Origin: Candidatus Kaiserbacteria bacterium
GTDB taxonomy: Bacteria; Patescibacteriota; Minisyncoccia; Phycocordibacterales; UBA918
NCBI GenBank assembly: GCA_043770255.1
Contig: JAYVIL010000021.1
Coordinates: 1-47,492, forward strand
Reading direction: 5' to 3'
DNA: 47,492 bases
Position 1 is the first letter of the stretch. Each line of letters starts with the position of its first letter. A model generated the notes under the pieces. It had not been told where the DNA came from and searched no databases. It saw only the letters and a program-made list of their open reading frames with translations. The translations under genes and the position numbers were made by a program. Shown here piece by piece: positions 15,001 to 43,683 of the stretch.

Positions 15001-17158
15001 CGCCAGTACCGCGATTAAACTAGCTGTGACCTATGACAGTAGTATGCAATCAGACTTTGATGACGTGCGGTTCACGAGTGGTGATGGTGTGACACCAATT
15101 CCGTACTGGATTGAACGCTATACCGCAAGTACCGACGCCACCGTGTGGGTGCGGGTACCAAACTTTCCGGCGAGCGAAACAGCAACCGTATTTATGTACT
15201 ACGGTAGTACGACTGCTGCTAATACTAGTTCGGGAACCACCACCTTTGATGCCTTTGACGATTTTGAAGACAATAATATTACTGAATACAGTGGGGACAC
15301 TTCACTCTTCCAAACGGACACTGCGCCAGTCTATGGCGGAACGTATGCCTTGGAAGCTGTCAACAAGAGCGGTCGAACCACTGACGGTATCTTTAGAACA
15401 GCGATGACAGTGTCGCAAGGTCAAATTATTCGGTGGATGCAGTATTTAGATGCTGTTGGTTCGGGTGACGATGCGTGTACGTTGTTTGGGGTCCAGTCAC
15501 CAGGGGTAAACAATAATAACTACGCTATATGTTTGCAGAAATTTGGTGTTGACCGCCTCGTGATAGCAAAAAATATTTACGACAATGATTCGTCAGGAAC
15601 TGTTCTAGCGTCAACAACTGCAACGTTTGCTACAGGCTGGTACGAAGTTGAGGTAGATTGGCGAACTAATAATTCAATTACCACGTATCTTCGTACTGCG
15701 GCGGGGGCACTTATTGCCACAGCTTCTACAACTGATGCTACCTACACCACTGGTGGTACGGGATTCACCTTCTGGTTCCAAAACGGATCATGGGATAGTT
15801 ACACTGCGCGCACTCGGGCTATGCTCACGCCAACAGTGTACTTTGGTGCCAAGCAAACTGACGGAGGAGCAACCTGGGAACGAGCCCAAAACGTCGCTGG
15901 TAATGGTGCATCAGGTGTTAACAAGCGATTACGTTTTGCCATTGAAAACTCCGGTCTTGATATCACTGGCCAAACCTTTCGTCTCGAGTATGCACAAAAA
16001 GGAGTCGCTCCAAGTTGTGAAGCCGTTGTCAACGCGAGTTACGTTTCAGTACCAAACCAAGCCAGTTGTGGTAGTTCACCACTGTGTATGCAAACCTCAA
16101 CGCAGGTTGCAGACAATGATCCAAGCACTGATTTGCTCGCGAGCACTACCGGCGCCTTTACCGCAGGTAAGGTAATAGAAAGTCCTTCAAACATCACCAG
16201 TTCCCTTGATATTAATCAAAATAGATACACCGAACTTGAATATGTTGTGACGCCAACTATTAACGCCAGTTCATCATACTGTTTGCGTGTCACCAACGGT
16301 GGTACTCCACTCGACTTCTACAACAAAGTAGCGGAACTAAGTCTGCAGTTTGATCCGGTATTTGGTCCGGTGAGTCTCAATGGCGGAAACCCAATTGCGC
16401 TCATCCCTGGAACAACCACAATAATTTACGCCTCAGGTACGGTGACTGACTTAAACGGTACTGGTGATATTACAGCGGGTAGTTCAACTATCTATCGTAG
16501 TGGAGCTGGACCAGCCTGTACCGCGAACACCAATAATTGTTACAAGGCAAATGTCGCGAGTTCCAGTTGTACCATTGGTAGTTGTGCCGGTAATACCTGT
16601 GTCTTAACATGTCGCGCAGATATCTTCTTTAATGCTGACGCCACTGATGCGAGTAGTACCTATCCAGGTGAGACGTGGGAAGCATACCTCGAAGTGAATG
16701 ACGTAGGTGGTGGCTATGATTTTGCATCTGCCATTTCTGTGGAACTCTATACATTACGGGCTGCCTCAGTCAACAACGCTATTAATTACGGAACATTAGC
16801 CTTGGGTGGTAACACGGGAGCTATAAACGCCAGTACCACCGTCTTAAATCTAGGAAATGCTAAATTTAACTTGGAAATGCTTGGTAGCGACCTATCTGAC
16901 GGTGGTAGTTCACGCATCCCGGCTGACCAGCAAAAATTTGCCACGACTTCATTTACGTATTCTGGCTGTGGTATTGGGGTATGTAGTTCACTTTCAAGTA
17001 CTACTCCCGTTCCGTTTGCGGTGGCGCTCGCTAAACCAACCGCACCAACTCCTCCGGTATCAACAGCGGTCTATTGGGGAATTTCGGTACCGGCGGCAGG
17101 AGTTAACAGTGCAGCTCACTCGGGTATCAACGTCTTCACCCCAGTGTATGCTCCGTAG
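2..17158 (+). CDS. Giant modular cell-surface (adhesin-like) protein; 5' end lies outside the window (>=5718 aa visible)
   Basis: Frame 2 is open from nt 2. Nt 2-250 encode ...TPYFEFQSSDPDGTSDITYEFAIS...TTYYWRVRAKD, a third copy of the FN3-like module at 3574-3940 and 4382-4732, so the GTG at 251 in the ORF track is internal. Modules read by eye: FN3-like x3; two 8-repeat W-[ND]-G-x-x-W propeller-like regions; three DUF2341+LamG-like cassettes; three prealbumin/CarboxypepD_reg-like units (VSGRAYEYDG, VSGVVYADDG, ISGNVYSDEG); long beta-helix-like repeats (TF.GVGG.W...GTVTLPTG...GG.F.N.G.F.HNNG); and a Cys-rich C-terminal domain. TAG at 17156-17158. Confidence 0.9.
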   Translation, partial: ASTTPYFEFQSSDPDGTSDITYEFAISTSSDFSSGSTFVSSSSPGFLNTVTATDTSPFFENQKIRYQLQASSSLSDLTTYYWRVRAKDVTGSGNFGDWTTTQSLTVDLAASAPNWYQTFSGQFLSNTLVGAVSNGVDSIQVDATQSTELLLVYGEGVVSTPRYRVWNGTTWGSELNAVAVGGTINWVKTAAGITRNEYALGTLDQGTNAYVQIYSASTSSWGNQTLLASGVADVTRRGIALGYESLSGDLIAVSCAAGAQPVYRVWNGVSWSATSSITVSSVNNCNYLDIASDPASDEMILVVRDTGVQYEALVWDGSAWTNSKVLGSAALAAREGIAIQYEDSGDQAVVIVSNGAGNNILYTTWDGIGWSANATQPIGNDFAFGKLTSDPNSDKLTLCYVDADSDIGVLRWDGGVWSTFFELETAANSATARPFDCPFETAAGRSGYIMVPYSDTTDSRYRVYATSSWNAEATITGVSDSFWINSERSDNGVIVSVNLDDATDILESAFWNGTSWSTKQTIESSPSSVIAAPYEMFDVTAKRFQFTEGVVRTPAINFSFVPNQPTWGDVSFSTSEPFGTDVKVRLRYTSTTTCDTYVPNGALAGNSAGFDVTSIPISLVGLSTTTYSQICLEATLTTLGSASANLNDWTLSWVREPKLIQNNFRWYTNGSFFTPTDPWPVGVSDVAENTALTSSVAVNNTDSIRLRMSLLGSNVIQPTSTKAFKLQYAEGFSCSPTLPWKDVGAVGSTTALWRGVANSIVGTDWYSASWTKRTKLTVLKTLVPESQTNFPVYVNLDDLPDAFFAGVQSDGDDIRITTSDGVTELPFELVSINTSSKIGELHFKASLSSTTDSEFYVYYGNPSASGYTASATYGSQNVWTNSYAGVYHLTQDPTGSAPQILDSTSNARHGSRTGTAGAGRVVTAQLGNGLDFVGTAGDYTIDFPSFGISSNGSYTYSAWFRASTTVNGAAGDGAGTYMTDRTAATNELVGLKVIGGNYAHQYRYNDSSGIGAVSGGAATAASWRHVTWGRAYNSNRFITVDNVRATTTDTASLLTPPLMRLGGHQSNTNFTGVADEVRIASVARSSGWTATEYNNQSNSTGFYALSAEELIGDGRTLPATVLTGSDYRETYEESNPTNLNRNAIATGTDAEWDFSIQNNGATSSTNYCFRMVYADGSSLSSYANYPRLITNAPPLSPVLSAPFDNRQLASTSPWFEFTADDELSDDVSYEIEVDDDVNFGSTVFNRDSVASFALFTNLTNPSQRSQYTSGQTMRFIPNVSLSSGTTYWWRVRAKDDFGSNTNSEWSTPNSFTIASTSITTWFQTTGDQFATNNQFDTIISTSTNDTGIDSSFVVGTTTSTVIDFDDREVGNAWGAFSFNHNVTSGSIRYYIEYRVGGETFALIPDTTLPGNSSGFTASPVSLVSINTTTYNEIRIVGVFSGNSTLPRLLDWTIVWGQTIEMPTLVQPFDNAKVSTTTPSFTFTTTDPESNDLQYEFQLSTAYAFTSSSTFISGVDAGFVNTTSSTDASPFISGNTIRYTAQSALGGGTTYWWRARARDPGGSNSWSSYSEPKSFTVDTGALVSTWHQTTGEQFATNDLVDIETTAGTAKITSVVSEVLMVYGEGTGQSPRYRIWNGSAWSATGTADSVGAQIRWLDLEASPTRPEYALGSLGTDLDVNIQIFNTNTEIWGNTREIQQNITDGLQRGFDIAYEKTSGDLIAVSCDGVDAVYSIWNGTSWSATTSINLANANNCIAVDMAADTTSDEIIAVFKHTNTGTPDYEALVWNGSSWGNSLALADMNENANHGVAIEYEESGNQAIVALTNNLATTLLYATWNGSVWATSSQALGDHIEWASLKRDVGTDNMALCYIDNDANIGVLQWNGSAWGTFTEIEQLGNSKAGQAVDCEFETKTDRDGYLMVPYADTIIGAYQFYATSSFSTEAALATMGDSWRVLTTRAGDGTIHAVYFEDVLDRYELSRFDGSTWTSIESIPTPSITGTPFDGSFAIASQIYPNFTAGSIVSTPISFADGAGPRWEQVLFNDTKPGASTIKYRVYYESSPNVYTIIPDSALSGNSAGFTTSPINIAGLDRTVYAKLKLDAEFICNLGNCPTLNEWSVEWSQGISVSGRAYEYDGVSTTTSGTVAVAVNGVLQVGKTGTIGAGGTWSITNVSAFIDDAITVYVDGAIDANESIAITTYDGIGDVTNMELTKRHVTIGSSDTATTTNSKLLGFDGSDDEDLFIDVTAGSNLDICFEGCADARLKVRAGTVYQPQGNIVTHDFFNFGTFKPATNTIRVRGSWNSQGTFDPDTSTVIFSATSSSETVVATGTALAFHTVTFGETSGAATWTLGKAFDITGSLAVDYGTLARGTSTINLEQNLRIGTAGFMTGIATTTFDGSGSHTWTDTSASSTNVGHVVIDGTAKTITLGGNVAAQSVTIGADDTLNASGSGFNINVVSNWTNNNSFIPQSGTVTFVGTTTGTIARGTSAFNNLTFSGVGGAWSFSTSTLAINNNLTIATGTVTLPTGTTTVGGNFTNSGGTFLHNNGEVRMTSATGGKTITQRATAFLNAFYDLTFTGAGAWSYTESAASTTRHYNIQSGTVTMPTGTLTIGGNFNVTGSGAFAHNNGEIILLVQDANTVRTNGSSINNLRTVGATGSWYNASWSARKPVTINASQVNTNVTDFPVFVDLANLGSDFFSTVKADGGDIRVTTSDGVTEVPLEVVAINTGGQTGEVHFKAPTLSTSTNSTFYIYFGNSAASGYASTTAYGSRNVWTNNYSGVYHLNQDPTGTGAIMLDSTANSRHGTRAGTAAAGRLVSAKIGNGLDMVGASGDYVIEFPSPGLGATSSYTQSAWFRSGATTNGLDNDANGTYMLDRNPAPNDIASLKVIGGNYAHQYRYTDNTGLGAVSGAAVASSSWQYVVWGRSYNVNRFIFTNAVIATATDATNALTLPNPRLGGHNGNTSFVGIADELRIASVARSSGWVTTEYNNQASTTAFYSVSATQLRFSRTFTDTNATVLGNFILDTGGEATFPTGVLGIGGSFDNNAAFTNSSGTVRFNSTAGAETIAMGTSSNFATLEFNSATGNFTVIENATATVAVNLTSASAFTVQSGLTLATLGTFTNAANGSSTTWTGSTLSLSGPDGAINLKTHGGDAYGTILTNGDTDMTMWNSTATSYSTASTSSIYSADHAGVDGDLTIYGNYVRTTGTEFWSYATDFDGVALTGSTSRQVDVRIATSSNVGFVSASLNLVGIAGASTTIDAVSGTYDISATNTTITASNFTVAGANASGLQLNASTTLSTFQDGFFTVVPGRTGITISSSTVTHNPAAQYQRISFATTTAGAATNVTLSGTSSTFVWFRNGTGNLYGEAFDAGDGNPGSIRWDDSSNSIVVSGVVYADDGVTPLGSGACNGSALSVRIVVNNGSYSSSTSCAAGTGAYSFPAVNYIGDPTMIVYLDTNTATGTKGSVVTKTPTTNITNMHLYAGRVITRHQDVVPLTIANMVNFQNSDDSDIQFIATTTGSTSLQVLAPNSLFVFATTTFAPGGNVTLLGNASSSAVEGTLQLGVAATFTASGTETHTLAGRLVLATTSTLTAASSTFVFNATTTGKSITSPNSITFNTLQFTGVGGGWNITAPIVVNNNMDVATGTVTGTNNVTVQNGSLSGNGTLSFGSGTTTIERTNTFGGTRAWNFFNLVLGNGSVVGTTTRSGTATTTVAGRLTITPAHFLVTGSSNWDLSGTGSVFVESGTLNEDTSTFRYSGASSNVLSTAYYNLDINAGAGTPTYTATGVGIAVTNNLTIGGTATTVFDVNTSDPALAVSGSVSVLSNGTFQASNIATTSVGSSFTNLGTFTSNGGIVAMVGAGASTIAPGTGSFGTLLINNVAGSFSVTQTATTTVALNLLNHANFTLASGTTMNIGGTFTNTLGGGATTFSSSTINFYGGGTKTINAKTVSDLYHTIVVATSTNVKMWNSSATTYNASGGLYSQDHAGVDGKLNIYGAYTQTTGADYWSYATDFDGVTLGGSPRKVDVAMASGSSAVYSGGGLEVLGTSSASTTIANQGVGTYGLTISGTASTSWDMVLVRNTNASGTVFSGTPIVNNFSRTDHLIGVNNGTGVTVFGTVIDVNQAKNFTNNVFASSSGVTGATNVTATGTSISSWRFTNHTGTLSGEAYDSDPAGDPGYIVWDDSAALITISGNVYSDEGSTVSTVCDGVTQNILLRVAGLTTYTASCNAGTGAYSIPNVAFSPADTLTVYIDGNARKAVTVSADPVSSISNLHLYENRVIVRHENTSPLSIADMAVWDSSDDADILFTAVDAGTDTLSLAADQKLLIWNGKTFEPAGNVTVTGGGAGGAQDGTLEAQTNATFRALGTETHAIGGSMIFGTGATFTAGQSTTTFTTTGASRTVDVNSNPFYNVAFTGSGSWNVTDATFTSNRSLTQSNGAVTFGSGTTTVGASFNATAGSFTMGGSALVFTSTTTGNTVRFDDSVVPSVLFMGTGGAWSMTDTNASTTGSFTVASGTVTLPTGNLGVARNFENTAGTIINNTADIIMSATSSALLRASSSNLFAVRFIGVGPFMMADVNLTLADSLTMSTGTLTLATGTLSVGGDFVIASGTVNNATGTVLLNATTVGKTVQFGANALYNVVFGSATGGWTFSGNATTTNNFSITGASSFTKSPNTNLNVGGVFTNTVVGSNTTWATTTLRLYGVSGYTLNTKTTGGDVYGTLEIASPLAIRAWNSAAATTTVLGGASFYSQDHAAVDGALNIYGNFTVATTTEYWNYSNDFDGTVLAGAAQRQVNVRLDTNATTTLTTGTLQIIGTAATSTTVAALGSGSYGFVVTGGTLNAQYYSMTNLGATGLTLSGAPTITNLANGAYTLTASGGSLITVAASVLDANASKIFSSVGFATTSAITGNNVTLTGSTSNAWRFSSSYGNLSGEAYDIDGLTACGAIRFDNSGCLLTQQTHYRWRNDDGGEGAPNSEWFNSSFDFRQRVRVVNSDATSYASTAIKLAVTYDSSMQSDFDDVRFTSGDGVTPIPYWIERYTASTDATVWVRVPNFPASETATVFMYYGSTTAANTSSGTTTFDAFDDFEDNNITEYSGDTSLFQTDTAPVYGGTYALEAVNKSGRTTDGIFRTAMTVSQGQIIRWMQYLDAVGSGDDACTLFGVQSPGVNNNNYAICLQKFGVDRLVIAKNIYDNDSSGTVLASTTATFATGWYEVEVDWRTNNSITTYLRTAAGALIATASTTDATYTTGGTGFTFWFQNGSWDSYTARTRAMLTPTVYFGAKQTDGGATWERAQNVAGNGASGVNKRLRFAIENSGLDITGQTFRLEYAQKGVAPSCEAVVNASYVSVPNQASCGSSPLCMQTSTQVADNDPSTDLLASTTGAFTAGKVIESPSNITSSLDINQNRYTELEYVVTPTINASSSYCLRVTNGGTPLDFYNKVAELSLQFDPVFGPVSLNGGNPIALIPGTTTIIYASGTVTDLNGTGDITAGSSTIYRSGAGPACTANTNNCYKANVASSSCTIGSCAGNTCVLTCRADIFFNADATDASSTYPGETWEAYLEVNDVGGGYDFASAISVELYTLRAASVNNAINYGTLALGGNTGAINASTTVLNLGNAKFNLEMLGSDLSDGGSSRIPADQQKFATTSFTYSGCGIGVCSSLSSTTPVPFAVALAKPTAPTPPVSTAVYWGISVPAAGVNSAAHSGINVFTPVYAP
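446..1585 (+). repeat. Propeller-like region copy 1: eight repeats of about 49 aa with a W-[ND]-G-x-x-W core
   Basis: YRVWNGTTWGSE, VQIYSASTSSWGNQ, YRVWNGVSWSAT, ALVWDGSAWTNS, YTTWDGIGWSAN, LRWDGGVWSTF, YRVYATSSWNAE, AFWNGTSWSTK occur at about 49-aa spacing. Collinear with copy 2. Confidence 0.7.
2294..3331 (+). repeat. DUF2341-like + LamG/ConA-like jelly-roll cassette, copy 1
   Basis: WYSASWTKRTKLTV...FPVYVNLDDLPDAFFAGVQSDGDDIRITTSDGVTELPFELV...ELHFKA...EFYVYYGN (DUF2341 pattern), then YAGVYHLTQDP...LDSTSNARHG...GNGLDFVG...ADEVRIASVARSSGWTATEYNNQ (LamG/Laminin_G_3 pattern). Family names are from memory of these motifs. Confidence 0.65.
4850..5986 (+). repeat. Propeller-like region copy 2 (paralogue of 446-1585)
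   Basis: VLMVYGEGTGQSPRYRIWNGSAWSAT...SIWNGTSWSAT...ALVWNGSSWGNS...YATWNGSVWATS...VLQWNGSAWGTF...SRFDGSTWTSI aligns block by block with copy 1, including shared strings such as SGDLIAVSC, DCxFET and GYxMVPY. Confidence 0.7.
7970..9010 (+). repeat. DUF2341-like + LamG-like cassette, copy 2
   Basis: WYNASWSARKPVTI...FPVFVDLANLGSDFFSTVKADGGDIRVTTSDGVTEVPLEVV...FYIYFGN...YSGVYHLNQDP...ADELRIASVARSSGWVTTEYNNQ is collinear with copy 1 along its whole length. Nucleotide identity is only moderate, so the duplication is old. Confidence 0.65.
9389..14867 (+). repeat. Coding super-repeat array: units of 2397 nt (9389-11785) and 2298 nt (11786-14083), plus a partial unit (14084-14867)
   Basis: Landmark strings recur in the same order: W(T/A).ST(L/I)...MWNS.AT.Y...YS(A/Q)DHAGVDG.L.IYG.Y...(F/Y)WSYATDFDGV...GEA(F/Y)D...G.I.WDDS...(V/I)SG.VY.D.G...LY..RVI.RH....PL(T/S)IA(N/D)M. 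An earlier partial copy starts near 6370. Confidence 0.7.
14933..15841 (+). repeat. DUF2341-like + jelly-roll cassette, copy 3 (divergent)
   Basis: WFNSSFDFRQRVRVVN...DFDDVRFTSGDGVTPIPYWIERY...ATVWVRVPNFPASETATVFMYYG, followed by a different beta-rich segment of about 190 aa (FDAFDDFEDNNITEYSGD...GWYEVEVDW...). Confidence 0.55.
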
Positions 17159-17179
17159 GTGCTACAATAATTACAATCT

Positions 17180-18622
17180 ATGCGTTGGTACCTTCTTATA
17201 ATTCCACTACTCGCTTGTGCGTTCCTCGGCTCAAGTGTTTCTGCGCAAACTGATGATACGAAGGCGCCAGAAATATCTAACGTAAAAATCGGCACTACTA
17301 CCAAGGAGAGTGTGACGTTGACGTGGGAGACAGATGAAAAAGCTGACTCCTCAGTCAACTATGGGTTGCAGCCAGACTACGGTATTGTCCGTGTTCCGGT
17401 AGCTGACCGCACGACGCACTCGGTAACATTAAATAATCTGGAACCTGGTCGCGTCTACTATTTCCGGGTGGTGTCAGCTGATGCGGGAGGTAACCAGGGT
17501 ATTTCAGCTGACTATAAAATCCAAACTGATGGTACTCCCGCAATTGGAGAAGGGAAGAGCGACTCTGAGCCAACCAAAGAAATTGTCGAACAGATTAAAC
17601 AAATTACCAGTATACCCAAACTGCAAGAGATTATTGATGAAACTATAAAAGTCATCAAAGGAATATCTCAAATACTAGCCATCGTCGGTCCGCCCACGGT
17701 AATTCCCGAAACAAATTCAGCTTTAATAAAGTGGGTGACAGACAGACCAGCAACTGCAGAAGTGCAGTTTTCCAAGACTCAAGGTTTTGATGGTACGTTT
17801 GATTTTTCTCAATCATCAACTGGCGAACCATCAACTGATCATGAGATTCGAATAATTGGATTAGAGCCGTTTACGGAGTACACCTTTAAAGTGGTATCAA
17901 AAGACACCTATAGTATTGTTGGAGAAAGCCGAAACTATACGTTTAGAACCAAGGCTTCGCTGCCTGATATTCGTAATCTGCGCATTGTAAAGGTGGAAGA
18001 AAATGCCGCGACTCTGGCGTGGGACACAACTGTGCCAGCAAAAGCTCTCATTGAATTTCAGGATTTAACCACCGGTATCCAAAACTCTGTTGGTCGTCCG
18101 ACTTTGGCCACTACTCATCAAATGCGCCTAGCTGACTTGACTCTCGGTACTCGTTACGTAGCTTTTGTGATTGCTGAAAATTCAGGTGGAGACCGTGTCC
18201 GTAGTCAGCCGATTCAGTTTATTACTATTCGTGATATTGCGCCTCCAATTATTACTAACGTGACCAACGAATCAACTATTTTCCCTGGTGGCGAATCACG
18301 CATTCAGACTATTGTTGAATGGAATACTGATGAGTCAGCCAGTTGTCTTATGACGTATCGCGAAGGAGTGGCCGGAGGAGTAGACCCAGTTACGATTGAA
18401 AAAGAAACGGAACAGTTTTCAACCAACCACGTTGAGGTAATTGTCGACTTTGCGCCAGCAACGGTATACCAATTCTGGCTTAACTGTACTGATGAGGCCA
18501 AAAATACTATTCAGTCGGAGAACTTTGTGTTGTTTACTCCTATTCAGGAGAAAAACATCATCGATTTGATTTTGGAAAACTTCCAGAGTACTTTTGGCTG
18601 GGTTAAGAATATAACTAATTAA
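17180..18622 (+). CDS. Secreted protein with four fibronectin type III-like domains
   Basis: Signal peptide MRWYLLIIPLLACAFLGSSVSA, with a possible lipobox LLAC. Four units of about 90 aa: ESVTLTWETDEKADSSVNYG...GRVYYFRVVSADAGGN; ALIKWVTDRPATAEVQF...FTEYTFKVVSKD; ATLAWDTTVPAKALIEF...GTRYVAFVIAEN; IVEWNTDESASCLMTY...ATVYQFWLNCTDEAKN. Starts 21 nt after the giant gene stop. Confidence 0.8.
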   Translation: MRWYLLIIPLLACAFLGSSVSAQTDDTKAPEISNVKIGTTTKESVTLTWETDEKADSSVNYGLQPDYGIVRVPVADRTTHSVTLNNLEPGRVYYFRVVSADAGGNQGISADYKIQTDGTPAIGEGKSDSEPTKEIVEQIKQITSIPKLQEIIDETIKVIKGISQILAIVGPPTVIPETNSALIKWVTDRPATAEVQFSKTQGFDGTFDFSQSSTGEPSTDHEIRIIGLEPFTEYTFKVVSKDTYSIVGESRNYTFRTKASLPDIRNLRIVKVEENAATLAWDTTVPAKALIEFQDLTTGIQNSVGRPTLATTHQMRLADLTLGTRYVAFVIAENSGGDRVRSQPIQFITIRDIAPPIITNVTNESTIFPGGESRIQTIVEWNTDESASCLMTYREGVAGGVDPVTIEKETEQFSTNHVEVIVDFAPATVYQFWLNCTDEAKNTIQSENFVLFTPIQEKNIIDLILENFQSTFGWVKNITN

Positions 18623-18691
18623 AATTAGCTATTTCTTAATCCACCAAAAGGTTTCAGGACTTTCATTAGGGATAGAAAGTCGGAACAAAGT

Positions 18692-18730
18692 AAACCACCA
18701 CCGGCCTTCAGCCGGTGGTGGTTTAGTTCA
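18692..18730 (+). terminator. Rho-independent terminator after the giant gene/FN3 unit
   Basis: Perfect 14-bp stem aaaccaccaccggc (18692-18705) / gccggtggtggttt (18711-18724) with a 5-nt loop. T residues lie at the end of the stem and after it. Confidence 0.8.
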
Positions 18731-18856
18731 TATTTTCAAAACTGGGTTATTAGTGAACTTGAAACTTGTGTGGATACAAATCACATTTGCTAATTCAATC
18801 CGTGTTTTAATGGTAGTACTGAGATTGCGTCTTTGTGTTTAACTCCAATCTGGAGA

Positions 18857-18895
18857 GTTCCAGCGATTTGTCCTAGGAAGTGACAAATCGGGAAC
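18857..18895 (+). promoter_or_regulatory. Stem-loop in the leader of the ABC ATPase gene
   Basis: gttcc(ag)cgatttgtc / gacaaatcg ggaac gives 9+5 bp with a 2-nt bulge and a 9-nt loop. It ends 41 nt before the ATG at 18937. Function unknown. Confidence 0.35.
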
Positions 18896-18936
18896 TAAAT
18901 TCGAAATAATCGCTACGCTCATTTTCTCATTTAAAA

Positions 18937-20259: not shown

Positions 20260-20269
20260 TCTGAGTTAC

Positions 20270-20339
20270 ATAGTTAAATAGTTTCATTGTTGCAAAGTGG
20301 TCACAACTACACCATGCAACCATGCAACTATTTAACTAT
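20270..20339 (+). repeat. Inverted repeat in the 152-nt gap between the ABC ATPase and permease genes
   Basis: Perfect 14-nt arms atagttaaatagtt (20270-20283) and aactatttaactat (20326-20339). The 42-nt spacer contains gttgca plus two copies of its complement (catgcaac catgcaac). Confidence 0.45.
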
Positions 20340-20411
20340 TCAACCAGCCCTCCTTTAAAACTGTGAGTTGCATCAAGTTAGGGGTTATATACATGTCATA
20401 ATGTATTAATA

Positions 20412-21620: not shown

Positions 21621-21622
21621 TC

Positions 21623-21743
21623 GGACATTCTCAAATGGCACATTTCTTCGTTGCGCTGCGGTAAATTATTATTCACCGTACGATGGGTACGGCTCATAAT
21701 AATTTCCTTGCGCGCCTCGAACTGTACTCATTTGAAAATGTCC
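21623..21743 (+). terminator. 121-nt imperfect palindrome (long hairpin) starting 3 nt after the permease stop
   Basis: Outer stem ggacattctcaaatg/catttgaaaatgtcc (14 of 15 bp), middle stem aaattattat/ataataattt (10 bp), apical stem ccgtac/gtacgg (6 bp, loop gatgg). Followed by ttggttgctttg. It could be a terminator, a stabilising hairpin or a REP/MITE-like element. Confidence 0.5.
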
Positions 21744-21843
21744 TTGGTTGCTTTGAAAAATTTTTTAACGACGAGTGAGTAAGTGTGTGTATAACTTGGG
21801 TATAGTCGGGGGGATATCAGCTAAAATGAATAGGTAAATTATT

Positions 21844-23736: not shown

Positions 23737-23785
23737 TCTAAGAACTTCCAGAACGGACACACTCTAGCGTTGTTTAACGTAAAAT

Positions 23786-24006: not shown

Positions 24007-24038
24007 GTTGAAAAATTTTTGATAATGGTAAGACTTGC

Positions 24039-29936: not shown

Positions 29937-29941
29937 ACTGT

Positions 29942-31687: not shown

Positions 31688-31694
31688 TCCCGTT

Positions 31695-33124: not shown

Positions 33125-33235
33125 TAAAAAGTGTTGATAAAACAGAGTTTTAGTTGCGAAATAACTGGTAGTATGTACTAGATGGGAAATTTATAGCGGA
33201 CCGTGAATCCGTTGTAAACAATTGGCTGTATAAAA

Positions 33236-37900: not shown

Positions 37901-40900
37901 CGGCCACGTCAACCAATGCCCAATATCAACTGGAGTACGGACCAAAAATAACAACCTGTAGCGCGGTAAGTGTTTGGACAAACGTAGATACTGCCAATGA
38001 CGACTGGAATATGTCTAATTCGGGTAACTTGACTGACGGTGCTGACACTACAAACATCGCTACCTCAACTGGTGGCGTAAGCGACGGTAATCCAACATTT
38101 TTAACCCCAAATGGTGGAGTGAAAGACACATCCGCGGTTACTGGTAACATCACCCTTAATTCAACGCAATTTACTGAGCTAGAATACAGCATCACCTCAA
38201 CCGGCATTACGGGCAGTAATGTGACCTACTGTTTAAGGGTGACCAATCTTGGTACTGAATTAAATCAGTATCTTAACTACGCAGAAATTAGAACTGCACC
38301 ACGAAGAGATTTTAAAATTCAACGCGGAGTTACCAATATTACGGGTACCAGTAGTACGCTCACAGCGGGGGTAAACTATAATGCACCATCAGCGACGTCT
38401 GCAGCCTTTGTACGAATAACTAACACCCAAATGACTGGTGCCGGCCGAAATACCTTGGGTGGTGCCCAAAATGCTCGTGATGTAACAGCCTTTATTAGTA
38501 ACCCGAGTAACCTTCTTACCAACTTCACTCTCGCACGGGCTGGTAACGTTAACAATACGCAGGTGTACTGGGAAATTATTGAATTTATTGGGGCTACCAG
38601 TACCGATAATGAAATGAAAGTATTACAAACGGGAACTTTGAATTTACCGAGTGCTTCGACGACGGCTACTGGTACCGCAGTTACTGGGGTGGCTGATGAT
38701 GCAGATGTTGTCGTCTTTATTACCGGTATTCAAAATGCCGATGTTGGTCGTAACTTCTACTATGCAGGAGCGGTGACCTCGCAATGGGATGCTGCGGGTA
38801 ATCGAGCGGTACTGCGACGTGGAGCTGGTGGTGCTATTGTGGACGTGAGTTATGCGGTCGTGGAGTTTACGGGTATTAACTGGAACATTCAACGGGTCGA
38901 ACACACCTATGCCTCAAGTACCATTACTGAAACCGAACCTATTACTCCCGTAAACAGTTTGGCACGAACGTTTGTTCATGCGCAAAAACGTATTAATGCA
39001 CTCGGAAACGTAAATAACTATGGTCATGAAGTGTGGCTTTCCAGTATCGGTGCTGTTTCGTTTAAACTCGAAGATGCGGCGACGACACCAGCGTCACATA
39101 CAGCAGTCGTGTGGGTTATCGAAAATCAACAGACAAGTGCCGGAGCGATGAAAGTACAGCGTAGTAACGGTAACACTACCGACGGCACAGAGCCTGTGGC
39201 ACTGGCCGTTCCGATTTTTACACCACTGGAAACTACTGCCAATGCCTCGATTTGGGGTACCTCTCGAGCGGTGGGGGCGAACTCCAACTTCCCAATTCCA
39301 ATGGCTGGCCTCACCATTACGTCAACGTCATCGTATACGCTCTGGCGGAGTGAGGCGTCTACTGCGCTTTTGACATATCGTACCGAAGTAGTTGAGTGGC
39401 CAATTAATGGTTTGGCAGTACGGCAAAATTATTACCGATTATATGTAGATAATAACGCCATTTTACCAACTGACCCGTGGCCGCCAGGACCAAGCGATCT
39501 CGGAGAAAATACCCCAGTCTCCATTTCTGACCAACCTTTAGGTGAAGCTGATAGAGTTCGGTTACGCATGTCACTACGGGTGAGTAATGCCAACTTACCG
39601 GCTGGATTATATGATTTTAAATTACAATATGGATTACGCTTAACCTCGTGTTCGGCTGTTGGTACCTGGACCGATGTAGGGGCGGCAGGTAGTGCCGCTG
39701 TGTGGCGAGGATACAATGCCACCGGAACCACAAACGGCGTCAATCTCTCAATTGATCCGCCAACATTTGGTGATCTTGTCTTATCAGTATCCAACATTGC
39801 GGGAAGTTATGTCGAAGAAAATCCCACTCCGGCCAACCCGTTCGGTGCTGACCCAAATCGTAATGTGGAATATGATTTCCAGCTTGAGCACAATGGTGCC
39901 ATTGAGCGCAGCGTGTATTGCTTCCGCATGGTCAGAAGTGACGGTACAACGCTCGACGGTTACTTAAACTATCCACAAATTCGGACAGCGGGCTTTACAC
40001 CGCAAACTCAAAATTGGCGTTGGTATGATGATTCCAATAATGAAACACCAATTTCTCCACTTTCTGCGGAAACTGTTGCTCCGATTGAAATTCAAAATGA
40101 TAATGCCCTGGCGTTGCGCGTTACTGTTGGTGAAGCTAAAAACGTCCGGGGACAAAACGTAAAATTTAAATTGCAGTACGACGAAAATCCGAACTTTACT
40201 AACCCCCGCGACGTCACTGCAACGTCAACCTGTTTAGCTACTTCTACCTGGTGTTATGCCGCAGGTGGTGCGCTCGACAATGCTACCATTACCACAAAAG
40301 TCTTAACCGATGCTAACGTGTGTGCGAGTGCTACTGGCACCGGGTGCGGCACTCACAATACGTCGGGTGTGTTTGTGCTTGGTGATACTCACCAACCTAG
40401 TGCGAATCGTGAATACGCTTTTTATGTCCGCCAAGTCCTGGCTCGGACAGGAGTAGTGTATTACTTCAGATTATACGATACGCTCAATGAGGTGCCGGTT
40501 ATTCTTAAATCTGGCAGTGCCTATCCTAGTACTGTCGCCGAAACAGCTAAGCTCTCGCTTACTATAGCTGGTTTACCCGCTGGTACAACAACTGCTGGGG
40601 TGACACTCACCGCGACTTCGACACCGACCACGGTTAACTTTGGCACCATCCCCATTAATACCCCTTGGTATTCAGCTCACAGGATAAGTGTCACTACCAA
40701 TGCCCTCGAAGGATACCGGGTTCTAAGCTACGCCAGGCAGCAACTTTTGAATAGCTACGGTACGGCCATTAACTCAATTACAGGTACTAATGCCGCTCCC
40801 ACGAGTTGGGCTGTAGGGTGTAGTGTGAGCGCTCCAGGCTGTATTGGATACCACACCACTGACGCTACGTTAGCTTCAGGTTCAACCAGATTCTCACCAC

Positions 40901-41064
40901 TTGATAGTTTTGCTGGCTTGCAAACTACGCCACAAGAAGTGATGTACAGCTCTCTTCCAGCCAGCGATGTTCATGATATTCTATACAAAGTGCAGGTTGG
41001 GTCACTCCAGCCCGCTGGTACCTACGAAACTGAAATTGTCTATCTCGCAGTTCCAACGTACTAA
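34906..41064 (+). CDS. 2052-aa modular surface protein with a WxL-like C-terminal domain
   Basis: Signal peptide (LVTVLLLMITICAQFTFLEFIAPKIAQA). N-terminal propeller-like region with Asp-box-like strings (STTGGDSW, TSAMSSWS; about 35068-36180). Tandem (A-B)x2 modules (36211-38300). A 4-fold repeat region (38299-39405). Two more W-R/Y-x-D sandwich modules (39421-40540). The C-terminal 172 aa (40546-41061) are homologous to the 383-aa protein C-terminus and end in YETEIVYLAVPTY*. Confidence 0.88.
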   Translation: MGRYPSIFNCVRSHRLVTVLLLMITICAQFTFLEFIAPKIAQAVLRTIDGDVSQTVSRHIFAGSQTVFISDLVGYKFYVDVSGICVYSKSTTGGDSWGAAVTVDSKTDCNGIAVWYDGWTPGDTGTNIHIATMNVANATDVIWYNRLDTSTDTRLSGTTPINTVSNSAQVPTYVAGTNSHTISKGTDGTIYIAASDASDSFVIECSTSCNTTTNWTQTGANFMDLDNDYNLLMPLLGGNMLLINRDISLDDIRTRLWDNSNWSGSWTAVDSNTPESATYDIGMAATQDHTSGDIYLAYASDNDNYTVLDHDVRTAKYVSGSWTGTTALFTNTTRGLTSVAISLDTNLGVIYVVYGLRTTPATATTGNIYFATSTSAMSSWSPERGPVNSGAADYYAIDANLMSDERIYATWMDPGTNPDEVFGDTLADIAPVTKASTLGNATSSISASTTNVYTGGTFVIKESQVSRNVTDITISENGTVDGSSAIKNIVMRYDLDTTAPYDCASESYSGSETQFGSTDANGFTGSDGVASFNGLVNITPTQAMCVYTIVDVLDSALSASTLRIYVNNPSTDILVSGGGVVTPNTTINFASSTLINNDTLTQTHYHWRNDNGSETGATSATGGTADTPIPALLQNTPRRLRVQVSNEGNLTSPATQFRLEYAEAAPTCALASGWTDVNAANDAWNMFDSSFVTNSTSTTDILVANGGMINENTTFLTPNGGLLDTTSQTGNLTLLTTNFVELEYSLVASSSAIQGTTYCFRVTSAGNELPVYSQYPAVTVSADVTMSATGTQATSVIIPTTNFQVGGTFVFTENVSSRNLTAITITENGTVDGTTGLDNIRLRYDLDTTAPYNCASESYAGSELQFGATDTDGFSGPNGSSTFSGSVSLTSTQAICVYTVFDVTSSASNNETVQIEITNGGNDVVISAGTVGPTTPIMLAGTTTLSGAILAQTGFHWRTDSGTEATAVSATAGQENTLLTEHPAGTSIRLRLGVSNEGAATSTNAQYQLEYGPKITTCSAVSVWTNVDTANDDWNMSNSGNLTDGADTTNIATSTGGVSDGNPTFLTPNGGVKDTSAVTGNITLNSTQFTELEYSITSTGITGSNVTYCLRVTNLGTELNQYLNYAEIRTAPRRDFKIQRGVTNITGTSSTLTAGVNYNAPSATSAAFVRITNTQMTGAGRNTLGGAQNARDVTAFISNPSNLLTNFTLARAGNVNNTQVYWEIIEFIGATSTDNEMKVLQTGTLNLPSASTTATGTAVTGVADDADVVVFITGIQNADVGRNFYYAGAVTSQWDAAGNRAVLRRGAGGAIVDVSYAVVEFTGINWNIQRVEHTYASSTITETEPITPVNSLARTFVHAQKRINALGNVNNYGHEVWLSSIGAVSFKLEDAATTPASHTAVVWVIENQQTSAGAMKVQRSNGNTTDGTEPVALAVPIFTPLETTANASIWGTSRAVGANSNFPIPMAGLTITSTSSYTLWRSEASTALLTYRTEVVEWPINGLAVRQNYYRLYVDNNAILPTDPWPPGPSDLGENTPVSISDQPLGEADRVRLRMSLRVSNANLPAGLYDFKLQYGLRLTSCSAVGTWTDVGAAGSAAVWRGYNATGTTNGVNLSIDPPTFGDLVLSVSNIAGSYVEENPTPANPFGADPNRNVEYDFQLEHNGAIERSVYCFRMVRSDGTTLDGYLNYPQIRTAGFTPQTQNWRWYDDSNNETPISPLSAETVAPIEIQNDNALALRVTVGEAKNVRGQNVKFKLQYDENPNFTNPRDVTATSTCLATSTWCYAAGGALDNATITTKVLTDANVCASATGTGCGTHNTSGVFVLGDTHQPSANREYAFYVRQVLARTGVVYYFRLYDTLNEVPVILKSGSAYPSTVAETAKLSLTIAGLPAGTTTAGVTLTATSTPTTVNFGTIPINTPWYSAHRISVTTNALEGYRVLSYARQQLLNSYGTAINSITGTNAAPTSWAVGCSVSAPGCIGYHTTDATLASGSTRFSPLDSFAGLQTTPQEVMYSSLPASDVHDILYKVQVGSLQPAGTYETEIVYLAVPTY
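36211..38300 (+). repeat. Tandem duplication of a two-module (A-B) unit of about 1.05 kb inside the 2052-aa gene
   Basis: A modules: ...GGTFVIKESQVSRNVTDITISENGTVDGSSAIKNIVMRYDLDTTAPYDCASESYSGSETQFG... versus ...GGTFVFTENVSSRNLTAITITENGTVDGTTGLDNIRLRYDLDTTAPYNCASESYAGSELQFG.... B modules: THYHWRNDNGSE...FVELEYSL...TYCFRVTS... versus TGFHWRTDSGTE...FTELEYSI...TYCLRVTN.... Confidence 0.8.
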
Positions 41065-41069
41065 ATTAT

Positions 41070-42047
41070 ATGAAATATCTCTTACTCTTTTTTGCCCTTG
41101 TCTGTCTCACGTCGCTTACGTCTGCCTCTGAATATGCTGTCACACCGCTCTTGATTGAAAACAGCATTGAGCCCCGCGATATGTTTGAGGAGTCAGTGAA
41201 AATTACCAATACGACCAATCACAAACTCCGTATTTTTCCAACAGTCAACGAAATTACCGTTGGTGACGAGGGGGAAGTGAAGTCCTTCATCCCGGCTTCG
41301 ATGAGCGATAATACTACCAGTATTACGAGCTGGATTTCAGTTACTCGGGGACGGGTAGAAATAAATCCTGGTGAAACCATAAAAATTCCAGTCTCCTTTA
41401 CCATCAACCCAAACGCTCTGCCGGGTGAATATCATGCCTTTATTGGTTTTGCTGAAGGTTCAAAGAGGGACGAGGCCGAAGCTCTGGTAACTTCTGGCCG
41501 TGCTCCAGGAGTGGTAGTTCGCTTATCACTCACTGAAAAAAGGTCTGAATATTTGCGACTCAATCGCTTTGTGGTAGATCGGTTTGTGACCGAAGTAAAA
41601 CCTGGTGCACTGACCTATGAAATTGAAAATGTAGGTGGTTTGCCTATTATTCCAGGGGGAGAAATTGTTTTCTATAACAGTCGCGGTGTTGAATTAGATT
41701 CACTTGCTGTGAACCCAGATAAACTAACCATCGCTGCAAATGCCAAAGAAACTTTTACGCAAACAGTGCCTGATTTAGGAATTGTCGGTCGGCACAAAGC
41801 ATTGTTAAACATCGAGTATGGAACAGGCATGCGCGCTAATTTGTATGACACTACCTACTTTAACGTGATACCGGTTTTGTATTTAACGTTACTTTTTGGT
41901 TTTTTGCTTAGTTTAGCTCTGATACTAGCGTTTTGGTACCATCGAAGTAGGACAGGGTACGTGGAGCAGGACGATGAAGTCTCAATGTATGTTCGCACTG
42001 GCGTAGTGGGTCAAGAAAAAGATCATGATATCAACCTTAAAAAATAA
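41070..42047 (+). CDS. Membrane-anchored protein with two Ig-like domains (DUF916/DUF3324-like architecture)
   Basis: Signal peptide MKYLLLFFALVCLTSLTSA. YAVTPLLIENSIEPRDMFEESVKITNTTNHKLRIFP...SWISVTRGRVEINPGETIKIPVSFTINPNALPGEYHAFIGF. Second domain ...LTYEIENVGGLPIIPGGEIVFYNSRG...GRHKALLNIEYG. C-terminal TM VLYLTLLFGFLLSLALILAFWY. Confidence 0.78.
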   Translation: MKYLLLFFALVCLTSLTSASEYAVTPLLIENSIEPRDMFEESVKITNTTNHKLRIFPTVNEITVGDEGEVKSFIPASMSDNTTSITSWISVTRGRVEINPGETIKIPVSFTINPNALPGEYHAFIGFAEGSKRDEAEALVTSGRAPGVVVRLSLTEKRSEYLRLNRFVVDRFVTEVKPGALTYEIENVGGLPIIPGGEIVFYNSRGVELDSLAVNPDKLTIAANAKETFTQTVPDLGIVGRHKALLNIEYGTGMRANLYDTTYFNVIPVLYLTLLFGFLLSLALILAFWYHRSRTGYVEQDDEVSMYVRTGVVGQEKDHDINLKK

Positions 42048-43683
42048 TTCACTTTTACTGTGCGTACTTTTGGTGGGTAGTTTTTTACCCTTCTTACTAC
42101 AAGCGCAAGTTGAACGTACCCAAACACTCAGTGTTTCACCAACGCTATTTCAGATGACCGCCAATCCTAGTCAATCTTGGGAGAGTGAAATTAGAGTGGT
42201 AAATGTTAACGACTTTGAAATTACAGTGTATCCGCAGGTAGTTAATTTTGCTCCCTCGGGCGAGAGTGGAACGGGTGCACTTATCCCTATTTTTGCTGAA
42301 GAAACAAAAGGGACAACTTTGGCAGAGTGGGTGACGCTAACGCAACGTGAAGTAGTGATTGCTCCAGGACAAACTGCCACGATTCCATTCTCAGTTAAAG
42401 TCACCCCTGATGCTGCTCCGGGTGGACACTACGCTGCTATACTCGTTGGCACAAAACCGCCCCAGAAAACTACTGCTGCCTCACAGGTGCAGACAGCTCA
42501 ATTTGTTACCTCGCTTTTGTTTGTGCGGGTGTCTGGAGACGTGATTGAAAGTGGAAATATTCGTGAGTTTACAACCGAAAAAACTATCAATAATGATCCT
42601 GATATTCAGTTTAACATTCGCTTTGAAAATACTGGCAATGTACATTTACAGCCACAAGGAGATATCACAATTACCAATATGTGGAGTATGGAGCGTGGTG
42701 TGATACCAATTAACTACCAGACTCATTTTGGAAATGTTCTACCCGCCAGCATTCGCAAGTTTAGTTTTAGCTGGATGGGAGCTAAATCGTCTTATGACAT
42801 TGGTCGCTTCAAAGCGATTGCCACGTTGGGCTATGGCGAAGACACAAAGAATTTCTCAACCAGTACGACATATTTTTGGGTGATACCCCTAAAAGAAATC
42901 TTCATTATATTCACCTGTCTCGCAGTCATGTTTTGGTTCTTTAGTTTTGTCGTAAAATTATATATCAAGCGCATGCTGGTACTGGCTGGACTGGAACCGG
43001 GGAGTGGCCGTCAAACTGGTGTTAATAAAAATTACCCAGAATATAGTAGCCACGCAGAGATGCCAGCTAAAACAGTTATTATCAAGCGTTACCAAACAGT
43101 AACGGCACCAGTGCGATATAGTGTCAGAGAATTCCTGGAGAACATTAAAGCTGCTCATGCCGTACGTGATATTTTAAAAGTTTGTTTTCAGTTTATCTTC
43201 AGGAACAAAATTTCTATTTTATTCATTAGTATGTTGATTGGTGTTTTTGCGCTGACGTTTTGGTTCTTTAGTGAGAGTAATACAAAATCTCGACCCTATG
43301 ATGTCGGCATTATTAATCCAGATTCCACAGTAGTTATTTCTTCAGATGAAATACTGTATAAAAATTTACCAGAATATGAATTGCCGCCAGGTGCACAAAA
43401 GGTAGGTGTACAGGCATTTACAATTGAGTTAGTAAACGCCGGTGGCGAGCCAGGACTAGCCGCAAAAGTGCGGAGAAAGCTCGAAGCCTACGGTTATACG
43501 GTAGACAGCATTGAAAATGAACTGGGCCGCTCTGATACTAAGTCAGTCATAATATTTCATCCAGACAACAAAGAGTCAGCTTTAGAATTAAGTAAAACGT
43601 TGCAACAAGCGCTCTTGTCAACAGATCAAGATATTTCAAAAAATTCAGTTCGCATCTATATCGGTACAGATAATCGCCAGTAG
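42025..43683 (+). CDS. DUF916/DUF3324-like ectodomain fused through two TM helices to a LytR_C-like domain
   Basis: Signal peptide LLLCVLLVGSFLPFLLQA. LSVSPTLFQMTANPSQSWESEIRVVNVNDFEITVYP...EWVTLTQREVVIAPGQTATIPFSVKVTPDAAPGGHYAAILV, then ...IRFENTGNVHLQPQGDITITN.... TM1 IFIIFTCLAVMFWFFSFVVKLYI, a loop of about 80 aa, TM2 ISILFISMLIGVFALTFWFF. C-terminus FTIELVNAGGEPGLAAKVRRKLEAYGYTVDSIENELGRSDTKSVIIFHPDN...VRIYIGTD (LytR_C pattern). Overlaps the previous gene by 23 nt. Confidence 0.75.
   Translation: MISTLKNNSLLLCVLLVGSFLPFLLQAQVERTQTLSVSPTLFQMTANPSQSWESEIRVVNVNDFEITVYPQVVNFAPSGESGTGALIPIFAEETKGTTLAEWVTLTQREVVIAPGQTATIPFSVKVTPDAAPGGHYAAILVGTKPPQKTTAASQVQTAQFVTSLLFVRVSGDVIESGNIREFTTEKTINNDPDIQFNIRFENTGNVHLQPQGDITITNMWSMERGVIPINYQTHFGNVLPASIRKFSFSWMGAKSSYDIGRFKAIATLGYGEDTKNFSTSTTYFWVIPLKEIFIIFTCLAVMFWFFSFVVKLYIKRMLVLAGLEPGSGRQTGVNKNYPEYSSHAEMPAKTVIIKRYQTVTAPVRYSVREFLENIKAAHAVRDILKVCFQFIFRNKISILFISMLIGVFALTFWFFSESNTKSRPYDVGIINPDSTVVISSDEILYKNLPEYELPPGAQKVGVQAFTIELVNAGGEPGLAAKVRRKLEAYGYTVDSIENELGRSDTKSVIIFHPDNKESALELSKTLQQALLSTDQDISKNSVRIYIGTDNRQ

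Follow-up and report, generated by a model that had tools for sequence, protein, structure and literature searches.

A 47,492-nt stretch of DNA from a Candidatus Kaiserbacteria bacterium (contig JAYVIL010000021.1 of assembly GCA_043770255.1, forward strand; hereafter the window) raises the question of whether its very large secreted proteins and its small membrane proteins make up one surface-attachment system and, if so, of which kind. The original prediction, made from the letters alone, took the locus for a distant relative of the WxL (Csc) clusters of Firmicutes, in which four secreted proteins with related C-terminal domains would be docked by three membrane partners resembling DUF916/DUF3324. 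We found that the three partners are true remote homologues of the Firmicute WxL partner protein, WxLIP, that the C-terminal domains form two homologous pairs, one of which appears to be a distant version of the Pam-pilin domain, and that genes for such domains directly precede partner genes in many related loci. The genes at issue are listed below by position in the window, strand and product, with lengths in amino acids (aa).

2..17158, + strand: giant secreted surface protein with DUF2341 and immunoglobulin-like (Ig-like) modules and a B-type C-terminal domain
21844..23736, + strand: 630-aa protein, the 'small' B-type carrier, with a long N-terminal signal/anchor segment
24039..25004, + strand: 321-aa WxLIP-like membrane partner no. 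1 (signal peptide, two beta-sandwiches, C-terminal transmembrane (TM) segment, basic tail)
27644..28795, + strand: 383-aa pilin-like major subunit (signal peptide, N-terminal sandwich, linker, A-type C-terminal sandwich)
34906..41064, + strand: 2052-aa secreted protein, the 'large' A-type carrier
41070..42047, + strand: 325-aa WxLIP-like membrane partner no. 2, starting 6 nt after the 2052-aa gene
42025..43683, + strand: 552-aa WxLIP-like membrane partner no. 3, overlapping the 325-aa gene by 23 nt

The gene array of the window is tightly packed and lies entirely on the + strand. Every open reading frame (ORF) on which the original prediction had relied is real, and its coordinates and strand were right. 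The length of the giant was not: its frame is open from nt 2 and holds 5,718 codons inside the window, and the full gene, as called on the source contig (an 88.6-kb metagenome scaffold), has a product of 6,991 aa rather than the 5,635 aa first supposed. A hidden Markov model (HMM) scan of all ORFs in the window found the A-type and B-type domains twice each and the partner three times, with no further copies.

The three partners belong together. BLASTP aligned the 325- and 552-aa proteins at E 1e-20, the 321- and 552-aa proteins at E 6e-5 and the 321- and 325-aa proteins at E 2e-3, and comparison of the family profiles with hhalign gave probabilities of 99.8% (325/552), 97.8% (321/325; E 1e-12) and 95.5% (321/552). 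In the AlphaFold2 model of the 325-aa protein (predicted local distance difference test score 82), a helix at residues 2-12 is followed by strand-rich domains at 22-154 and 162-266 and a second helix at 269-294; for the 321- and 552-aa proteins, the arrangement of signal peptide, two Ig-like domains and TM segment was read from the sequence. The general layout proposed earlier for all three (signal peptide, Ig, Ig, TM, basic tail) was thus borne out, with the addition in the 552-aa protein of a cytoplasmic loop, a second TM segment (read from the translation) and a C-terminal LytR_C domain (PF13399, E 5.6e-13). The 325-aa family also has a conserved cytoplasmic tail ending KDHDINLKK, in which D320 and L323 are invariant; this conservation hints at a contact with a cytoplasmic factor.

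Pfam thresholds do not identify the partners as WxLIPs. The family PF06030 (DUF916, now 'WxLIP_PGBD') matched the 552-aa protein nearly full-length at 23.8 bits (E 4.7e-5) and the 325-aa protein at 17.7 bits, against a cutoff of 27.3; it did not match the 321-aa protein, and PF11797 (DUF3324) never matched. Sub-threshold PF06030 matches occurred in 13 of 42 members of the 325-aa family, one homologue (P0230) has a precomputed PF06030 match, and members of this family also give weak matches to many unrelated Ig-like Pfam families. We therefore turned to profile comparison, using a profile of 11 genuine Firmicute WxLIPs from Firmicute-plasmid WxL clusters that were found by the published WxLIP motif. 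Against this profile, hhalign placed the 325-aa family at 95.5% probability (E 1.6e-8, score 67.7), the 552-aa family at 94.0% (E 1.5e-7, score 59.6, 243 columns over both domains) and the 321-aa family at 71.3% (E 3.6e-5, score 44.6). Block-shuffled controls, which preserve composition and local beta patterns, scored 19-24 with standard deviations of 3-5, so that the real partner-WxLIP scores lie 7-10 standard deviations above them. The 321-aa protein was also matched directly by the WxLIP HMM (E 2.9e-5).

Structural comparison gave the same ranking. Among 1,888 PDB matches of the 325-aa model in Foldseek (E <= 10), ranks 1-3 were taken by Enterococcus faecium WxLIP, namely 9i25_C (E 2.7e-11) and 9i1y (E 1.3e-10), followed by RbmA, the pilus chaperones CfaA (1.5e-9) and CsuC (4e-8), and PapD-like ASH/SPD-2 domains. 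The WxLIP motif NQIDKxxxYFDLK is absent from all three partners and faces a gap in the 325-family profile in the hhalign alignment. Given scores this far above the shuffled controls, the DUF916/DUF3324 assignment is right at the level of remote homology, though not at Pfam thresholds, and we conclude that the three partners are true remote homologues of Firmicute WxLIP.

The four secreted proteins had been described as ending in related domains. BLASTP with compositional adjustment aligned the 383-aa protein to the C-terminus of the 2052-aa protein over 300 columns at 29% identity (E 6e-15; the A-type pair) and the C-terminus of the giant to the 630-aa protein over 303 columns at 32% identity (E 6e-22; the B-type pair). 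In the B-type pair the homology had been recognized, and its extent underestimated: the region is longer than first described and includes a Cys-rich part. Between the pairs, BLASTP returned E ~1, and the family profiles reached hhalign probabilities of 1-6%, no better than block-shuffled controls. The two types share a ~27-column terminal motif, '[YW]xIxV..AGxYTxxxT[YF]', which is the layout that the earlier reader had noticed. Because BLASTP and hhalign both fail across the pairs, we treat the domains as two pairs and not as four demonstrably related domains; four-way homology was rejected, as no A-to-B signal extends past the terminal motif and shuffled controls score equally high.

The 383-aa protein consists of an N-terminal beta-sandwich (~aa 40-180), a linker strand at aa 181-203 (nt 28184-28252) and, at aa 204-383 (nt 28253-28795), the A-type C-terminal beta-sandwich, which ends ...LQEAGNDYTATLTYVATPVF. 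In its AlphaFold2 model the N-terminal sandwich is predicted with confidence, the linker is disordered (aa 189-195) and the C-terminal sandwich is of lower confidence. Across 104 diverse relatives, conservation is highest in the linker (2.76 bits per site), followed by the C-terminal domain (2.41) and the N-terminal domain (1.59), and within the linker it alternates, with V189 conserved in 92%, V191 in 76%, A193 in 97%, V195 in 92% and F201 in 99% of the relatives. The protein has more than 1,700 homologues at 60-90% identity, the nearest genomic relative being encoded in a Candidatus Kaiserbacteria metagenome-assembled genome (MAG) at 87% identity, with further relatives labelled Paceibacteria, Parcubacteria or Nomurabacteria. 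In total, the A-type family comprises 1,327 clusters at 50% identity and is thus a very large family of the candidate phyla radiation (CPR).

In the 2052-aa protein, the A-type domain occupies ~nt 40516-41064 (A-type HMM E 4.4e-65), and Pfam recognized no N-terminal modules. The junction before the domain reads 'YPSTVAETA' and is not a pilin-type linker; throughout the class of 1,850-2,050 aa, a conserved 'YPSLVTEGA' junction stands in place of the pilin linker. Larger members of the A-type family bear adhesin-type modules (LVIVD, Laminin_G_3 and Flg_new). For the B-type pair, the domain spans ~nt 22816-23706 of the 630-aa gene (B-type HMM E 2.9e-73), ending ...TFWGIAVPGSVSLAGSYTGQNTF..., and in the giant it makes up the last ~260 aa (~nt 16364-17158; HMM E 2.6e-34 over ORF residues 5557-5717), behind the DUF2341 (E 5.5e-23) and Ig_Rha78A_N modules that Pfam identified. 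The B-type family has 73 proteins.

Are these C-terminal domains WxL domains, as the original prediction held? The Pfam WxL family, PF13731, was unmatched throughout: at E <= 1 in the 383- and 630-aa proteins, at E <= 0.1 in the giant and the 2052-aa protein, at E <= 10 among 11 A-type C-terminal domains, and at E <= 0.01 in 130 diverse A-type and 55 B-type members (185 in all). Pfam WxL membership of either domain type is ruled out by this lack of matches. Both Trp-x-Leu motifs are absent, the A-type domain having 'YGFAVTV' and 'TLTYVATP' and the B-type domain 'YWGIxVP' and 'GxNTF' in their place, whereas the genuine WxL sequences that we compared have GW-x-L and TW-x-L, apart from one in which Y naturally replaces W. 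The WxL chain of 9i25 was not within the top 50 Foldseek matches of the 383-aa model.

A weaker signal came from an expanded profile of 23 genuine WxL domains. Aligned to the A-type profile by hhalign, it gave 12% probability (P 0.0024) over ~175 co-linear columns, with a score of 27.5 compared to 17.9 +/- 1.4 for shuffles, 0 of 25 of which scored as high. In this alignment an 'FG' motif, 'GW-x-L' with 'GF-x-V', and the terminal 'TLTW-x-L' with 'TLTY-V-A' line up. HMM-versus-sequence scores between WxL and A-type barely exceed those of reversed decoys, the B-type profile gave no signal against WxL, and genuine WxL proteins do not match the Pam NCBIfam models. One genuine Bacillus thuringiensis WxL protein ends '...LTYSVVTGP', from which it follows that the second WxL Trp can be Tyr in a genuine Firmicute cluster. 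On B. thuringiensis plasmid NZ_CP097258.1, the WxL-annotated genes L093:4158-4763 and L093:5979-7901 encode the ends '...YESVLTYSVVTGP' and '...YESIITWSIVAGP'. Taken as profile evidence, these results connect the A-type domain to WxL weakly. The view of the locus as a distant WxL-type system accordingly survives in its cluster logic and in the homology of the partners to WxLIP; the C-terminal domains themselves are not Pfam WxL domains.

A second point of comparison is the Pam pilus. Pam pili of Candidatus Mycosynbacter amalyticus (CPR, Saccharimonadia) are donor-strand-exchange pili whose membrane-anchored chaperones, PamC/D, are PapD/FimC-like; PamT is a tip protein consisting of the C-terminal domain only, and PamR is an RbmA-like anchor (bioRxiv 10.64898/2026.03.03.709456). 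The system was reported mainly in Saccharimonadia and Microgenomatia, in an ATP-synthase neighbourhood, and the preprint does not mention WxL, Paceibacteria or adhesins (bioRxiv 10.64898/2026.03.03.709456). Its publication has overtaken the earlier statement that no such system was known outside Firmicutes. The NCBIfam model CPR_Pam_pilin_C was matched by 34 of 37 close relatives of the 383-aa protein (best E 6.4e-7) and, by E-value, by 70 of 130 diverse A-type members (best E 5.1e-13); one A-type member matches the PamT model. The AlphaFold2 model and the conservation profile of the 383-aa protein fit the Pam layout, with the linker at low confidence in the model, and the Pam authors report the same conservation pattern for their donor linker (bioRxiv 10.64898/2026.03.03.709456). 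Judged from these family-level matches, the A-type domain is a distant Pam-pilin domain.

To place the locus in its genomic context, we surveyed 80 loci from species-representative genomes. A gene for a docking domain stands directly before a WxLIP-like gene in ~70 related loci. In 39 loci, a 321-like gene begins no more than 280 nt downstream of a ~630-aa B-type gene, and at 27 paralogous loci in other parts of these genomes a WxLIP-like gene comes within 233 nt after a ~380-aa A-type gene. Large A-type genes (1,893 and 1,895 aa, in L056 and L060) likewise stand directly before a WxLIP-like gene, and L001, L003, L056 and L060 each have an orthologue of the 2052-aa protein (1,840-2,053 aa) in the corresponding place. 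The co-occurrence of these gene types in related genomes, on which the original prediction had staked itself, is therefore found for both domain types, and because the pairing recurs in different contexts, it argues for a functional couple. Each domain type lies at the C-terminus of a small and of a large protein encoded beside WxLIP-like genes: the 383/2052 pair with the 325- and 552-aa partners, and the 630/6,991 pair with the 321-aa partner.

In one Paceibacteria genome (L001), the whole array is kept gene for gene, in the order fibronectin-type-III-like (FN3) protein, MacB-type ATP-binding cassette (ABC) pair, 630-like, 321-like, dockerin protein, 383-like and two cohesin-like membrane proteins, followed by three small genes, a ~2,000-aa protein, 325-like and 552-like. 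In L003, the downstream half is kept, starting with the cohesin protein and reaching past the 552-like gene, with a partner only 43% identical. Compact paralogous clusters also occur in related genomes: in L056 and L060 (3-12350), the gene of a large A-type protein is accompanied by two partner genes, a tandem pair of ~390-aa pilin-like genes and one more partner gene, and in L043 (4999-6710) a 168-aa domain-only ORF (PamT-like) adjoins a partner gene. Many TPA_asm MAGs titled 'uncultured Candidatus Saccharibacteria' (L008, L010, L012, L030 and others) carry the locus at 50-70% identity; the label is probably generic and not a true assignment to Saccharimonadia.

What the comparisons show is homology, domain architecture and a conserved pairing of genes, and we are quite confident that a system of partners and acceptor domains exists at all. 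What the system does is harder to say. We propose, giving the idea about an even chance, that it is a Paceibacteria variant of Pam/WxL-type strand complementation, which would build a pilus of the 383-aa protein and giant adhesins. The secreted subunits would be exported via Sec, since their N-terminal segments are signal-like, and would each end in a ~180-300-aa C-terminal beta-sandwich serving as an 'acceptor' (A-type in the 383- and 2052-aa proteins, B-type in the 630- and 6,991-aa proteins). An anchored two-Ig partner may then cap the acceptor domain with one of its own strands. There are precedents for such capping: an AlphaFold2 prediction in which a hairpin strand of WxLIP completes the WxL sandwich (PMC10599100) and modelled complexes in which PamC/D cap Pam pilins (bioRxiv 10.64898/2026.03.03.709456); PDB 9i25 is a crystal structure of E. 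faecium WxLIP bound to a long WxL protein.

After capping, the 383-aa subunit would polymerise head-to-tail into a thin, Pam-like pilus, its linker strand V189-x-V191-x-A193-x-V195...F199-x-F201 inserting into its neighbour's C-terminal domain. The large proteins, in which the acceptor domain stands behind a different junction and there is no pilin linker, could be built in as distal, tip-like adhesins comparable to FimH/PapG. The B-type pair and the 321-aa protein, its presumed partner, would form a parallel second set, and the 552-aa paralogue, with its second TM segment and LytR_C domain, may tether the structure to the wall or membrane.

Several findings weigh against this proposal. That the 383-aa protein polymerises, that its linker acts as donor and that the giants sit at the tip are all inferences. 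The 383-aa protein itself reaches 22.1 bits (E 1.3e-4) against NF058581 (CPR_Pam_pilin_C), for which the cutoff is 55, and over the first third of the model only; neither the 2052-aa protein nor the B-type proteins match it, and no Pam-related NCBIfam family matched the partners. Foldseek returned only generic two-Ig adhesins and pilins for the 383-aa model, the C-terminal half of which has low confidence, and an identity of 60-90% across many genomes is unusual for a pilin surface subunit. For the B-type domain, comparisons with WxL, Pam, Pfam, NCBIfam and the PDB detected no relatives beyond the B-type family. Sequence searches of the PDB, with the 383-aa protein alone and with the pilin-like, B-type and partner family profiles, matched no solved structure, the only relevant line being EfmWxLIP1 at chance level (E 0.96). 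Finally, RbmA and the pilus chaperones are about equally good matches to the partners, which leaves room for some of them to be PamR-like anchors rather than chaperones.

Some of this evidence would be accommodated by static docking of the WxL type, in which nothing polymerises and each partner permanently holds one secreted protein by strand insertion into its C-terminal domain; the locus would then serve to anchor surface proteins non-covalently, in the manner proposed for the WxL/Csc clusters of Firmicutes. The strongest homology that we found is that of the partners to WxLIP; in the WxL model the two proteins bind 1:1 and the TM helix of WxLIP provides the anchor (PMC10599100), a type of complex of which 9i25 is an instance; the window has about one partner gene per pair of domain-bearing genes; and the WxL profile is co-linear with the A-type domain beyond the level of its shuffles. 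A docked monomer would, however, leave unexplained the Pam-pilin architecture of the 383-aa protein and the fact that its alternating linker is its most conserved segment. The family moreover matches the Pam-pilin model, at best at E 5e-13, and never Pfam WxL, and the tandem pilin-like genes with partners in L056 and L060 are arranged like PamA and PamB. We consider static docking unlikely on balance, while still a serious competitor to a strand-complementation pilus. A more distant reading takes the 383-aa protein for a surface-layer or envelope lattice protein, its neighbours for an independent 'surface island' and the Pam and WxLIP resemblances for generic features of the Ig fold. The very high conservation and wide distribution of the 383-aa protein in the clade would suit such a lattice, as would its generic Foldseek matches and the weak matches of partner-family members to many unrelated Ig-like Pfam families. 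A generic fold does not account for partner-WxLIP scores so far above controls that preserve composition, for WxLIP structures heading the Foldseek list, or for a rule of domain gene then partner that recurs across contexts and for both domain types, and we regard this reading as improbable.

We give almost no credence to chance resemblance among Thr/Ser/Gly-rich beta-strand sequences, with no system behind it. Composition at the locus is strongly biased to T, S, G and A, and the similarity between A-type and B-type domains is indeed no better than that of block-shuffled controls. Within the pairs, the E-values hold under compositional adjustment, both domain types have many homologues, and synteny is conserved. 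Chance is thus refuted for both pairs and for the partners, and stands only for the A-to-B link. Other kinds of surface fibre were also tried and set aside. For sortase-type pilins, LPXTG/pilin motif searches matched none of the proteins above noise; for type IV pilins, no prepilin motif was found; and a Tad match at E 0.018 on the signal region of the 630-aa protein was treated as noise. No protein scanned here matched PF12389, the family of TasA/camelysin.

Set beside known systems, the locus shares with the WxL/Csc clusters of Enterococcus, Lactobacillus, Listeria and Bacillus the arrangement of small and large proteins that have one ~200-aa C-terminal domain in common beside an anchored partner, and its terminal strand 'Y-T-A-T-L-T-Y-V-A-T-P' recalls the WxL strand 'Y-x-T-T-L-T-W-x-L-x-D-x-P'. 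It differs in lacking PF13731, both Trp-x-Leu motifs and NQIDKxxxYFDLK, in a small subunit with an extra N-terminal domain and linker, in large proteins that are 3-10 times larger, and in its CPR host. Gene order differs as well: the large protein precedes the partner here, whereas the order is small WxL, WxLIP, large WxL in L086, L092 and L093, the plasmid loci with an identifiable large WxL from which we took it.

The likeness to Pam consists in the CPR host, in two-Ig, C-terminal-TM partners within the same operon (PamC/D being compared by description only), in the lack of an usher or other trans-envelope machine, in paralogous pilins in tandem (in related loci here, as PamA and PamB there), and in the family-level HMMER similarity of the A-type domain to CPR_Pam_pilin_C. 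In contrast to Pam, the locus lies in the Paceibacteria/Kaiserbacteria, and its own pilin-like protein falls far under the CPR_Pam_pilin_C cutoff. Acceptor-type C-termini are found here on proteins of 2,052 and 6,991 aa, and a second domain, the unrelated-looking B-type, has a partner to itself. Where pam has an ATP-synthase neighbourhood, this locus contains genes for a MacB-type ABC transporter and for cohesin-dockerin proteins, and no equivalent of PamT or PamR was recognized in the window.

Chaperone-usher systems (Pap/Fim, CFA/I and the archaic Csu) resemble the locus in the structural similarity of the two-Ig partner to CfaA and CsuC and in the proposed tip-adhesin logic of an adhesive N-terminal part on a C-terminal pilin domain. 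A final strand of the form 'AGxY-x-x-x-hydrophobic-alternating' is typical of chaperone-usher pilins. They differ from it in that the locus has no usher (usher families matched none of its scanned proteins) and no outer membrane, that the partner is membrane-anchored, that the presumed donor strand is an internal linker and not an N-terminal extension, and that no sequence similarity is detectable. TasA and archaeal bundling pili, for their part, are likewise built of extracellular beta-sandwich subunits by strand complementation without an usher, but those fibres have no dedicated two-Ig membrane partner; TasA homologues have been reported in Patescibacteria (PMC9245690).

The remaining genes of the array are conserved to differing degrees and are listed below.

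17180..21620, + strand: fibronectin-type-III-like secreted protein (480 aa), MacB/LolCDE-type ABC ATPase and permease; conserved accompanying genes
25006..26124, + strand: 372-aa secreted protein with Cys-rich repeat, Big_6 and dockerin; conserved neighbour
26211-26897: histidine-phosphatase gene of cytoplasmic type in a lower-GC region, interrupting the surface-protein array
28932..34837, + strand: five conserved genes between the 383-aa and 2052-aa genes, encoding 334, 581, 243, 251 and 533 aa, as follows
28932-29936: 334-aa cohesin-like protein with a TM segment; cohesin-dockerin set
29942-31687: 581-aa protein with Cohesin (PF00963), Big_13 and a TM segment; cohesin-dockerin set
within 28932..34837, + strand: 243-aa membrane/coiled-coil protein
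32369-33124: 251-aa cohesin-like protein with a dockerin; cohesin-dockerin set
33236-34837: 533-aa TolB-like beta-propeller, from a weak, below-cutoff repeat match

The five genes between the 383-aa and 2052-aa genes are kept in 67-70 of 83 related loci, and in the same order in L001 and L003. The cohesin-dockerin set (the 372-, 334-, 581- and 251-aa proteins) is interleaved with the locus and is likewise kept in 67-70 of 83 related loci, which suggests that proteins are held at the membrane in a second, independent way as well. A long N-terminal region of the 533-aa protein is acidic and rich in Thr. In L001 and L003, genes comparable to it in length (516 and 534 aa) stand just upstream of the ~2,000-aa gene.

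The MacB/LolCDE-type ATPase (18937-20259) has a ~200-aa C-terminal extension, and its permease lies at 20412-21620. This pair sits between the giant/FN3 genes and the 630-aa gene, a position kept in related genomes, and together with the FN3 gene it is found in the same order in L001, L002 and L095. MacB-type transporters perform mechanical work outside the membrane, and the pair could for that reason take part in assembly. At the site of the histidine-phosphatase gene, L001 holds only a 61-aa ORF; the gene is probably a lineage-specific insertion.

Knowledge of WxL/WxLIP clusters dates from 2006, and Pam pili were described in 2026. New here are a Paceibacteria/Kaiserbacteria version, the use of such domains to attach proteins of 2,052 and 6,991 aa, the presence of a second type of domain that has its own partner, and an explicit homology of CPR partners to WxLIP. 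Apart from one general review, the literature searched does not link WxL to donor-strand mechanisms. Our results suggest that Pam pili and WxL clusters are related. A bolder version of this idea, which we offer as a possibility and somewhat doubt, is that both belong to one ancient usher-less system of monoderm-type envelopes, with the present locus as the missing link. If so, a membrane-anchored two-Ig protein (WxLIP, corresponding to PamC/D) would cap a strand-deficient C-terminal sandwich and then hand it over, WxL proteins would themselves be docked or polymerised by donor-strand complementation, and the same device would here attach adhesins 2,000-7,000 residues long to a pilus.

An attached life on host cells is generally assumed for the CPR/Patescibacteria, whose means of holding on are little understood. 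The locus would extend Pam-like assembly to the Paceibacteria/Kaiserbacteria clade as a core, syntenic feature, and it suggests how proteins of up to ~7,000 residues get mounted on the surface. It also provides the first bridge found, in sequence and in structure, from the pilus partners of CPR bacteria to the WxLIP proteins that Gram-positive pathogens and probiotics possess. This bridge predicts that the WxL-WxLIP interaction is a donor-strand complementation related to that of pilus chaperones, which can be tested in Enterococcus, Listeria and Lactiplantibacillus.

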